UHGV virus genome: UHGV-1355782
Direction: 5' to 3' (one strand)
DNA: 43,206 nucleotides
DNA from: a virus
Below, piece by piece: positions 40,031-42,166 of the stretch. The notes under the pieces are model-generated. The model was not told where the DNA came from, searched no databases, and saw only the letters and a list, made by a program, of their open reading frames with translations. The position numbers and the translations under genes were made by a program. Numbering within the stretch: position 1 is the first letter of the stretch; every line of letters starts with the position of its first letter.

Positions 40031-40335
40031 TGATTGACGCATATATCTATTGGAGCGGGATAGCTTTTAATTTTACCCTTGTCGCTGCGGTTCTTTGGGT
40101 GCTTTGGTGTTGGGTACTGTTCCCCGCCGTAGAAGCGGCCAGCATGGCGCGGTACTACCGAAGAATCGGAAAAGCGCACAGGATTAAAGTACACAACTGG
40201 TTAAGGCTATTCCTCGCTAACTACGAATTGTTTGGGCGCACGTTTACGGCGCAGCGGTGTGCTTACGGCTACTGGGAAGGAGTAGGGCTATGGGAAGTAT
40301 TTCCTGCGGAGGATGAAAATGAGCCTGGCAACTGA
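40030..40335 (+). CDS. hypothetical membrane protein
   Basis: ATG 40030 overlapping previous stop; TM segment IAFNFTLVAAVLWVLWCWVLF. Confidence 0.45.
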   Translation: MIDAYIYWSGIAFNFTLVAAVLWVLWCWVLFPAVEAASMARYYRRIGKAHRIKVHNWLRLFLANYELFGRTFTAQRCAYGYWEGVGLWEVFPAEDENEPGN

Positions 40336-40612
40336 CATCCTGAAGCGAAGCGGCCTTGTGCCGCTGTCGCCGAGAGCTAAAACACGAATATACAAGCGCC
40401 GCCGTAATGCGCTGTACCCCGAGATTCAGGCCAGACGCAAAGCTGTCCGTGCCTGCGGATTCCAGAACGGGAAGGCCGTGAATCTCGGTGAGTTTAAAAC
40501 AAAGGAACGCGCAGCAATCGCTAATCGGCTATTTAAATACTGGAAATCGCTGGGATATGAAGATATTCCGACGAAACCGCAGAGACGACAATACATCTGG
40601 AGACATAAATGA
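40319..40612 (+). CDS. hypothetical basic protein
   Basis: ATG 40319 6 nt after RBS GGAGG; Arg/Lys-rich. Confidence 0.45.
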   Translation: MSLATDILKRSGLVPLSPRAKTRIYKRRRNALYPEIQARRKAVRACGFQNGKAVNLGEFKTKERAAIANRLFKYWKSLGYEDIPTKPQRRQYIWRHK

Positions 40613-41049
40613 CTACTATCGCGTTTGACGGAAAGACGATGGCATGTGACACCCGTGTTGTGAGTGGAAGTAACTATTACAACACAGACACAAAGATATA
40701 TGAGAACGAATTTGTTGTTATCGGGGTGGCTGGTGATGCTGGGGTTGGAATCCTTTTAGTGAAGGACGATAGTATTTTAGTGCCTAAGCATTATGATTTT
40801 GATTTCTCTGCTTTGGTGTGGGTTAAAGACATCGAAACGTTGTGTAAGGTGGAGTTCTACAAATCATGGGATTGTGAGCTTAGTTCGGTTATTCCGATCG
40901 CAGACGGCTTTGCCGCCGTCGGCTCCGGTGCGCCTTATGCGCTAGCGGCTATGGAATGCGGGTATTCTGCACATGGTGGCGTAGCTGTGGCGTCGAAGTT
41001 TAACACTGACACAGGTGGCAAGATTATTACCAAACAACTATTAGGATAA
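40609..41049 (+). CDS. HslV/proteasome beta-subunit-like Ntn-hydrolase peptidase
   Basis: N-terminus MTTIAFDG with Thr after Met as in HslV MTTIVSV; GSGAPYALAAMECG resembles HslV GSGGPYAQAAARAL; recalled family resemblance, not a search. Confidence 0.55.
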   Translation: MTTIAFDGKTMACDTRVVSGSNYYNTDTKIYENEFVVIGVAGDAGVGILLVKDDSILVPKHYDFDFSALVWVKDIETLCKVEFYKSWDCELSSVIPIADGFAAVGSGAPYALAAMECGYSAHGGVAVASKFNTDTGGKIITKQLLG

Positions 41050-41063
41050 ATCCTAACCGTGCT

Positions 41064-41103
41064 ATCCTCCAGTTACTGCATACTTAATACGCACCTGGAG
41101 GAT
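41064..41103 (+). promoter_or_regulatory. inverted repeat sequestering the holin ribosome-binding site
   Basis: ATCCTCCAG (41064-41072) perfectly complementary to CTGGAGGAT (41095-41103), which contains the holin SD GGAGGA. Confidence 0.4.
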
Positions 41104-41108
41104 TCATC

Positions 41109-41417
41109 TTGGATAAATTTACTGAAACAGTGACGGGGTGGCTTCTGGCTGCCGCACTAGCAGGAGGGGTAATCGGGCTACGACAACATAAGTCCGTTAT
41201 TTCTGGCCCTATCGACGGCTTCTGCTTTATCGCAACTGGCTTCACCTGCGCCGTATTTGGCGCACCCCTCGCGGCTCAATGGTTCGGCATTACCGGGGAA
41301 CGCGAGATAGCTGGCCTCGGATTTATCATCGCTGTCCTCTGGATGCCCATCTATTCCCGCCTTTCTGGCATCGTCGCCGGAGAATACATCGCACGTCGAG
41401 GAGGCCCGGATGAATGA
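41109..41417 (+). CDS. holin (putative, three TM segments)
   Basis: TTG start 7 nt after RBS GGAGGA; three hydrophobic segments; charged C-terminus; precedes endolysin. Confidence 0.55.
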   Translation: MDKFTETVTGWLLAAALAGGVIGLRQHKSVISGPIDGFCFIATGFTCAVFGAPLAAQWFGITGEREIAGLGFIIAVLWMPIYSRLSGIVAGEYIARRGGPDE

Positions 41418-41682
41418 GTTATTCTGGTTCGGCGGTATGCTGGCAATCGGAGGCACATCGCTGTTTAATGTTTATCACCCCAGCGTGGACGACGGGCTGT
41501 TCGGTCGGGTGCTCTATATCCTGACAGCTATCGTCTGCGCCGCCGGATGTATCCACCTGTTACAGGGCAGCATGTCACCAACGCTGCCTGAGACATTAAT
41601 CACATTAGTTGCGCTGCGCCAGATTCGCCAGGCGTGGCTGTCATACGGAGGACATAAGCGTGTCTCGAAACATTTCAGATAA
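41410..41682 (+). CDS. second holin-like membrane protein (possible antiholin)
   Basis: RBS GAGGAGG; two TM segments; overlaps holin stop and endolysin start. Confidence 0.4.
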   Translation: MNELFWFGGMLAIGGTSLFNVYHPSVDDGLFGRVLYILTAIVCAAGCIHLLQGSMSPTLPETLITLVALRQIRQAWLSYGGHKRVSKHFR

Positions 41683-42166
41683 TGGATTGCAGTTCAAGAA
41701 AGCGTGGGAGAAGTTTCGCGGAACTGCATACAAAGCCACAAAGAACGAGAAATACTGGACTATAGGCTGGGGCCATACCGGGCCGGATGTGTATGAAGGG
41801 CAGAAGATTACTGAGGGTCAGGGGCTTCTGCTACTGAACCGCGATATGCAGTGGGCTGTGAAAGCAGTCGACGAGGTAGCGCACCCCTCACTGACCCAGG
41901 CCCAGTTTGATGCTGTTGTTGACCTGGTGTTTAACGCAGGAACTGGCGTTATTGCTGCTAATACCGGAACCGGTAAGGCACTACGTAGCGGGGACATCCC
42001 CACCTTACGGCATAAGTTGAGCCAGTTCATCAACCAACGCAACCCGAAAACCGGTAAACTCGAGCCTGTGCTTGGCCTACGCCGTCGCGTAGCCGGACGT
42101 CTGGCACTGTTCGACGGTAAACCATGGCGGGAGGCAGAAGCTATCGGGCGCGCGGTGAAAGGTTGA
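41660..42166 (+). CDS. endolysin, T4-lysozyme-like (GH24) muramidase
   Basis: catalytic-region motif EKFRGTAYKATKNEKYWTIGWGHT; GTG 41660 preceded by RBS GGAGGA (ORF track starts 41609). Confidence 0.8.
   Translation: MSRNISDNGLQFKKAWEKFRGTAYKATKNEKYWTIGWGHTGPDVYEGQKITEGQGLLLLNRDMQWAVKAVDEVAHPSLTQAQFDAVVDLVFNAGTGVIAANTGTGKALRSGDIPTLRHKLSQFINQRNPKTGKLEPVLGLRRRVAGRLALFDGKPWREAEAIGRAVKG

Follow-up and report, generated by a model that had tools for sequence, protein, structure and literature searches.

A PPH-type proteasome/HslV homologue with a predicted N-terminal threonine nucleophile upstream of the lysis cassette of a Kagunavirus-related phage

The window, which is the whole stretch of 43,206 nucleotides of viral DNA analysed here (UHGV virus genome UHGV-1355782), encodes directly upstream of its lysis genes a small protein that is best explained as a PPH-type, ATPase-independent peptidase with an N-terminal threonine nucleophile. 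We put the probability of this reading at roughly 70%. The observation as such is already known and our finding rediscovers existing annotation: the PPH family was described computationally in 2021 (PMC8665760), the PHROG_1040 family is named 'peptidase HslV family', and many relatives in GenBank are labelled. The labels found in relatives comprise 'peptidase HslV family', 'HslV family peptidase', 'ATP-dependent protease', 'protease', 'NTN-hydrolase superfamily protein' and 'hypothetical protein'. Targeted literature searches yielded the 2021 paper alone and no published experiments on any PPH, and none of the citing papers that were found deals with phages.

The initial annotation had described an open reading frame for a 146-aa protein which begins with MTTIAFDG and is translationally coupled to small genes upstream, and the sequence confirms both statements. 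The ATG of the PPH gene (40609-40611) overlaps the TGA of the upstream open reading frame (40610-40612) and is preceded by a Shine-Dalgarno motif. It is also the earliest available start past an in-frame stop and therefore leaves no room for a propeptide ahead of Thr2. Comparison with the Kagunavirus relatives gave dN/dS values of 0.06-0.20 (Nei-Gojobori), and the gene is under purifying selection. The upstream gene encodes a very basic protein for which neither Pfam nor PADLOC returned a match. An AP2-type DNA-binding domain was considered for this upstream protein and dropped, as Pfam gave no support. The features at the start of the gene are as follows.

40313-40612, plus strand: upstream 99-aa basic protein (PHROG 9632), overlapping the PPH start
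40599-40602, plus strand: Shine-Dalgarno motif GGAG, 6 nt 5' of the PPH ATG, from direct reading of the sequence
40609-40612, plus strand: ATGA start/stop overlap between the upstream gene and PPH (translational coupling)
40609-41049, plus strand: coding sequence of the PPH-type proteasome/HslV homologue, 146 aa, stop codon included

Placing the protein in a superfamily required family-level profiles, since single-sequence searches of Pfam, NCBIfam and the PDB stayed below threshold. As a single sequence, the window protein scored 17.1 bits against Pfam PF00227 (Proteasome), whose gathering threshold is 22.4 bits, and phmmer searches of the PDB gave matches at E values of 0.05 or worse. The single sequence did match PHROG_1040 with E=9.4e-35. 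When 63 diverse family members were used instead, 39 of them matched the Proteasome family PF00227 (best E=2.4e-8), and a profile built from all 63 recovered HslV (9.5e-11), BPH (3.8e-9) and proteasome beta5 (3e-7) from the PDB. The best identity to any PDB entry was 28%, and no solved structure exists for any close relative. Profile and fold searches led to the proteasome/HslV superfamily (MEROPS clan PB, family T1) and to no other family, in agreement with the proposal of an HslV/proteasome-like Ntn-hydrolase with which we started.

The fold was modelled with AF2. A diverse alignment yielded a model with a pLDDT of 94.8, and an alignment restricted to close homologues (at least 77% identity) gave an unusable pLDDT of 33.7. 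The predicted structure is an alpha-beta-beta-alpha Ntn fold that can be superposed on proteasome beta, HslV and BPH. DSSP assigned to it a helix of six residues (46-51), no helix between residues 52 and 107, two helices at 108-116 and 121-131 and a last strand at 139-143. According to the model, helix H2 is thus absent and H1 is cut to six residues, helices H3 and H4 are kept, and the C-terminal extension is absent. HslV residues roughly 59-94 (about 25-30 residues) have no counterpart in the PPH alignment.

These are features by which the PPH family has been defined. PPH proteins were described as proteins of ~140 residues from Caudovirales and prophages that carry no propeptide, and were placed in Group I, where they and HslV radiate from BPH (PMC8665760). 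Together with their relative RPC, which has a C-terminal extension, they are the only proteasome-like homologues without helix H2; they also lack the C-terminal S12/H5 and retain the catalytic residues Thr1, Asp17, Lys33 and Gly47 (PMC8665760). The window protein agrees with this description in its length, its origin from a tailed phage of Proteobacteria, the missing propeptide, the predicted lack of H2 and of S12/H5 or any extra domain, and the presence of equivalents of all four catalytic residues. Judged by these features of sequence and model, we assign it as a PPH and not as an HslV. We found no structural difference from PPH; the window copy has Asn in place of the Asp166 equivalent, and the Kagunavirus clade differs from most PPH by small insertions (residues 55-57, 77-80 and 85-89). 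Unlike RPC, the window protein has no C-terminal extension; its chain stops just past the last core strand.

The differences from the better-known relatives are larger. Compared to HslV (ClpQ; MEROPS T1B), the dodecameric peptidase (two hexameric rings) of the bacterial ATP-dependent protease HslUV, the window protein is ~30 residues shorter, H2 is missing, H1 is truncated, the pocket for the HslU tail is not intact and no hslU gene accompanies it. It is not an HslV (ClpQ) orthologue, since its scores with the equivalog HMMs lie far below the cutoffs (TIGR03692, 12.2 bits with 157.75 required; NF003964, 12.1 with 137 required), hslU is missing, and conservation does not extend to the face that would contact HslU. 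BPH (PDB 5ovs, 5ovt), which is bacterial and not viral, has ~185-200 residues, complete H1 and H2 helices and a long acidic pore loop, and forms heptameric double rings. In comparison with a 20S proteasome beta subunit of the beta5 type, the window protein is ~60 residues shorter, has neither propeptide nor autolytic activation, and lacks an alpha ring as well as H2 and H5.

To locate the catalytic residues we used a MAFFT alignment of 145 representatives, mutually at most 50% identical, together with E. coli HslV. The following codons correspond to the predicted active site; counts refer to the 145 representatives.

40612-40614, plus strand: Thr2, predicted nucleophile after removal of Met (equivalent to Thr1 of HslV and the proteasome); 140 Thr and 3 Ser
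40648-40650, plus strand: Asp14 (equivalent to HslV Asp17); 143 Asp and 2 Glu
40693-40695, plus strand: Lys29 (equivalent to HslV Lys33); Lys in 145
40723-40734, plus strand: Gly39-Val-Ala-Gly42 (equivalent to the oxyanion-hole Gly47, Ala49 and Gly50 of the proteasome); position 39 with 115 Gly and 24 Ala, Gly42 in 143
40921-40929, plus strand: Gly105-Ser106-Gly107 (Ser equivalent to proteasome Ser129 and HslV Ser124); conserved in 145, 134 and 145
41002-41013, plus strand: Asn132-Thr-Asp-Thr135, family motif D-x-x-T/S (equivalent to proteasome Asp166 and Ser169); first position with 137 Asp and 5 Asn in the family

The N-terminal Thr, from which the initial annotation had argued, is therefore retained in the homologues: all but two of the 145 carry Thr or Ser at this position, Thr2 was invariant in a further alignment (A3), and 139 of the best 150 family representatives begin with MT. 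The resemblance to HslV that had been noticed in GSGAPYALAAMECG was also borne out, as this segment (residues 105-118) can be aligned with GSGGPYA, a motif present in solved HslV chains, and the profile search of the PDB likewise aligned Gly105-Ser106-Gly107 to the GSG motif of HslV. The C-terminal motif of the family, D-x-x-T/S-G-G in the alignment of 145, is proteasome-like rather than HslV-like. We take the near-invariance of Thr2, Asp14, Lys29 and Gly-Ser-Gly in divergent lineages to be the signature of what is probably a working active site.

On this basis we propose the following mechanism. Host methionine aminopeptidase would remove Met1 and expose Thr, which would serve as nucleophile and as general base/acid; Thr is an accepted penultimate residue for the removal of Met, and E. 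coli HslV itself starts with MTT. Lys29 and Asp14 would activate the Thr hydroxyl, the backbone of Gly39 would stabilise the oxyanion, and Ser106, Asn132 and Thr135 would tune the Thr amine, with the roles of the Lys/Asp pair and of the Ser/Asp/Ser network taken from the proteasome (PMC4792962). The conserved equivalents of Thr21, Gly47 and Ala49 suggest, by analogy, a peptide substrate that binds in the form of an extended strand. Most of the surface that contacts HslU in HslV, and the alpha ring in the 20S proteasome, is missing from PPH. Most likely, therefore, the enzyme needs no unfoldase, as is the case for BPH and Anbu, and would act on peptides, on unfolded segments or on a single specific target. 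Active sites of the proteasome family are normally competent only once rings assemble. Among the elements kept in the model are helices H3 and H4, through which the rings of proteasomes contact each other (PMC8665760). The alternative would be an opened-up enzyme with a specific target. As to its role, we tentatively regard the gene as an accessory gene whose product modifies host or phage proteins.

Against full activity speaks Asn132, which by analogy to the proteasome would occupy a residue important for efficient proteolysis. In this phage (KFNTDTG) it replaces the family Asp that is equivalent to proteasome Asp166. All 133 motif-matching close relatives read KFD..TG or QFD..TG, most of them with Asn two residues on, and the window phage has Asp two residues after Asn132, so that the two positions look like a reciprocal D/N swap. 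Among close relatives Asn132 is unique to this phage; Asn was also found in 5 of the 145 distant representatives. The exact window protein is present on three public contigs, and we therefore consider Asn132 a real allele. In yeast beta5, the D166N exchange lowers activity by ~60% and Thr1 still reacts with inhibitors (PMC4792962). By analogy, the Asn132 variant probably has lowered and not abolished activity, and its active site may represent a compensated or an attenuated allele.

We next consider how widely such proteins are distributed. With tblastn, PPH was found in 298 phage records, 258 of them from Salmonella phages (mostly Jerseyvirus, ~63-68% identity) and 30 from Escherichia phages. 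An HMM search of 1.84 billion representatives gave 3,803 matches at E ≤ 1e-3, of which 206 reached E ≤ 1e-10. The majority of these matches are 136-160 aa long and align from residue 1, with a median length of 146 aa for 150 representatives. These numbers, together with the match to PHROG_1040 and the low dN/dS, take the gene far past what chance would produce. Relatives lie on at least 412 IMG/VR stretches. In BFVD, matches at E ≤ 1e-3 came from 38 clusters, which include jumbo phages as well as phages of Caulobacter; for some of these matches, the existing label is 'Proteasome subunit beta', 'Ntn hydrolase domain' or 'ATP-dependent protease subunit'. Nothing is said about the gene in the BASEL paper on Kagunavirus. 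The CiPGr genome-reduction study is uninformative on the dispensability of PPH; its Salmonella siphovirus seszw is a Skatevirus and not a member of the Guernseyvirinae.

Homologues also occur in bacterial genomes. A scan limited to a sequence pattern (alignment A4), and thus biased towards MTTIA[FW]DG N-termini, identified 41 bacterial loci with a PPH homologue. About 20 genomes of Roseomonas, Falsiroseomonas, Muricoccus and other Acetobacteraceae carry it on large chromosomal contigs (L086-L110), and by crude calling of open reading frames some of these copies lie beside genes of a housekeeping type (TctC-like and dihydroorotase-like), which are not obvious phage genes. Non-prophage cases of PPH have been mentioned for Pseudoalteromonas and Mesorhizobium (PMC8665760), and the Acetobacteraceae copies may represent another such lineage.

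Several members deviate in their architecture. A distant one (P0267) has an N-terminal extension that resembles a Sec signal peptide and ends in FNQSANA, directly followed by TTIAWDG; judged from its sequence, this form of the enzyme may reside in the periplasm, and its catalytic Thr would be freed by signal peptidase in place of Met aminopeptidase. Two longer members have Cys-rich C-terminal tails, one with repeated CxxCxGxG-like motifs recalling the zinc-finger region of DnaJ (P0244) and the other with a zinc-ribbon-like CxxC...CxxC (P0242), which could be substrate-binding or targeting modules. The BFVD protein A0A1W6DWU9 has 263 aa and shares 60% identity with the window protein across 131 columns, several other viral matches have 275-279 aa, and the PHROG_1040 profile has 277 positions, of which the query covers 14-155. 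Some phage members thus possibly have a C-terminal extension of ~120 residues, which may be RPC-like, or are mis-called fusions.

The initial annotation had stated that no HslU-like ATPase is encoded nearby and that the protein could recruit a host unfoldase. Our searches agree with the first statement. Pfam scans of all large non-structural open reading frames found no HslU/ClpX-type AAA+ protein in the window, the domains recovered being terminase, SNF2 helicase, PolA, an Enc34-type SSB, a PD-(D/E)XK nuclease and an AAA_25 helicase-primase. A six-frame motif scan of the window revealed no AAA+ P-loop, and among all annotated genes of a close relative there is none for an HslU/ClpX-like AAA+ protein. 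In the viral PPH loci, only one of 5,499 open reading frames contained an AAA+ type P-loop by motif scan. The description as a phage-encoded HslV/proteasome-like Ntn hydrolase with a predicted N-terminal catalytic Thr and without a cognate ATPase is supported. A conserved neighbour was sought in 79 IMG/VR loci, which were reduced to 42 lineages (<60% PPH identity) and in which the genes within five positions on either side were clustered; no neighbour, partner or substrate gene was conserved in more than 5 of the 42 viral lineages. The commonest neighbour family, Mu-F-like head morphogenesis, reached five lineages, and terminase, portal, SF2 helicase and VRR-NUC nuclease were each near PPH in three. 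No partner gene was seen near the 41 bacterial loci, a result that is noisy owing to crude calling of open reading frames in high-GC DNA.

The second statement was weakened. It amounts to PPH building HslV-like rings that dock host HslU (or ClpX/ClpA), giving a hybrid ATP-dependent protease which redirects host proteolysis. HslV is one of the two closest solved relatives, the hosts (E. coli and Salmonella) encode HslU, and with no such ATPase found in the phage, only the host could supply an unfoldase. However, the C-terminal tails of HslU enter pockets between HslV subunits that are formed by Phe54 and Phe57 (H1), Ala79 and Lys80 (H2) and Gln114 (PMC6429459), and in the model of PPH the helices that carry the first four of these residues are deleted (H2) or truncated (H1). 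Canonical docking or recruitment of HslU is therefore unlikely. As the protein moreover falls far short of the HslV equivalog cutoff (TIGR03692) and its family has a C-terminal motif closer to that of the proteasome than to that of HslV, we consider a hijacked host unfoldase rather unlikely.

Another reading keeps the chemistry of Thr1 and gives it a purpose other than degradation: PPH might be a connectase-like, sequence-specific transpeptidase or ligase, or else an amidohydrolase whose substrate is a non-protein amide. Connectase (PDB 6zw0, 8jtu) resembles PPH in being a proteasome-like Ntn enzyme off the ring-protease paradigm that misses part of the first helix pair. We regard this reading, too, as unlikely, with a slim chance of being correct.

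The position of the gene raises the question of a role in lysis or virion maturation, in which PPH would process holin, endolysin, spanin, or scaffold or capsid proteins. As the initial annotation had it, PPH sits just before the lysis cassette, and the next three genes indeed encode two holins and a Phage_lysozyme endolysin.

41064-41103, plus strand: 9-bp hairpin ATCCTCCAG...CTGGAGGAT in the spacer between PPH and holin (RNA fold -21.3 kcal/mol, z=-2.97)
41109-41417 and 41410-41682, plus strand: two overlapping holin genes (PHROG 2359, E=5e-29; PHROG 2508, E=2e-33)
41609-42166, plus strand: endolysin open reading frame, true start probably downstream of 41609 (Pfam Phage_lysozyme, E=5e-24; PHROG endolysin families)

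The region is 84-89% identical at the DNA level to Kagunavirus phages (Guernseyvirinae) of E. coli, and the order of the small genes, PHROG 9632, PPH, the two holins and the endolysin is identical in phage vB_VIPECOMC04. In addition to this adjacency, the annotated genome of a close relative contains no dedicated prohead or head-maturation protease, and the above-described neighbour analysis placed head morphogenesis, terminase and portal genes near PPH in some lineages. Yet the adjacency to lysis genes did not recur in other lineages; it is a peculiarity of the Guernseyvirinae and not a trait of the PPH family. The gene also lies outside the head module, and PPH has no signal peptide and thus cannot reach periplasmic targets. 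Many phages with a separate scaffolding protein require no protease.

The spacer between PPH and the lysis genes also argues against a joint function. It extends from the PPH stop at 41049 to the TTG start of the first holin gene at 41109, and the Shine-Dalgarno motif of the holin, GGAGGA (41097-41102), sits in the 3' arm of the hairpin. This hairpin is invariant across Kagunavirus loci. Jerseyvirus loci have in the same place an unrelated, terminator-like hairpin, AATCTCCGAA...TTCGGAGATTTTTT, whose 3' arm also holds the Shine-Dalgarno motif of the holin. That two unrelated sequences share one architecture suggests that RNA structure gates translation of the holin and that PPH closes a transcription unit. 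Taken together, we consider a function in lysis or maturation very unlikely. PADLOC gave no match and thus no similarity to known defence proteins.

Finally, a non-catalytic mimic with a vestigial site, which would poison host HslV rings by co-assembly or titrate a host factor, might be read from the retention of H3 and H4 with their ring-ring contacts and from Asn132, seen in this phage only among close relatives, yet it is highly improbable given the near-invariant catalytic residues in very divergent lineages and the partial activity kept by yeast beta5 with Asn at the equivalent position.

Within the preferred reading of an ATPase-independent threonine peptidase, we can imagine a more specific scenario, which is possible although doubtful: PPH might act on its own, as a viral threonine protease or transpeptidase with no need of an unfoldase, and hit one specific host or phage protein to favour infection. 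Its targets could then be a host stress, proteolysis or defence factor, the loss of H1 and H2 would be adaptive in that the active site lies open and not hidden inside a gated chamber, and Asn132 would be a tuned-down allele. If this were true, PPH would be the first proteasome-family enzyme with a defined viral role. The natural Asp-to-Asn variant provides a ready-made allele for comparison. PPH is very widespread and is carried by most sequenced Jerseyvirus and Kagunavirus phages, which are candidates for therapy and biocontrol. Being small, culturable and engineerable, these phages represent a practical system for studying a 146-residue relative of the proteasome that would work without an unfoldase.
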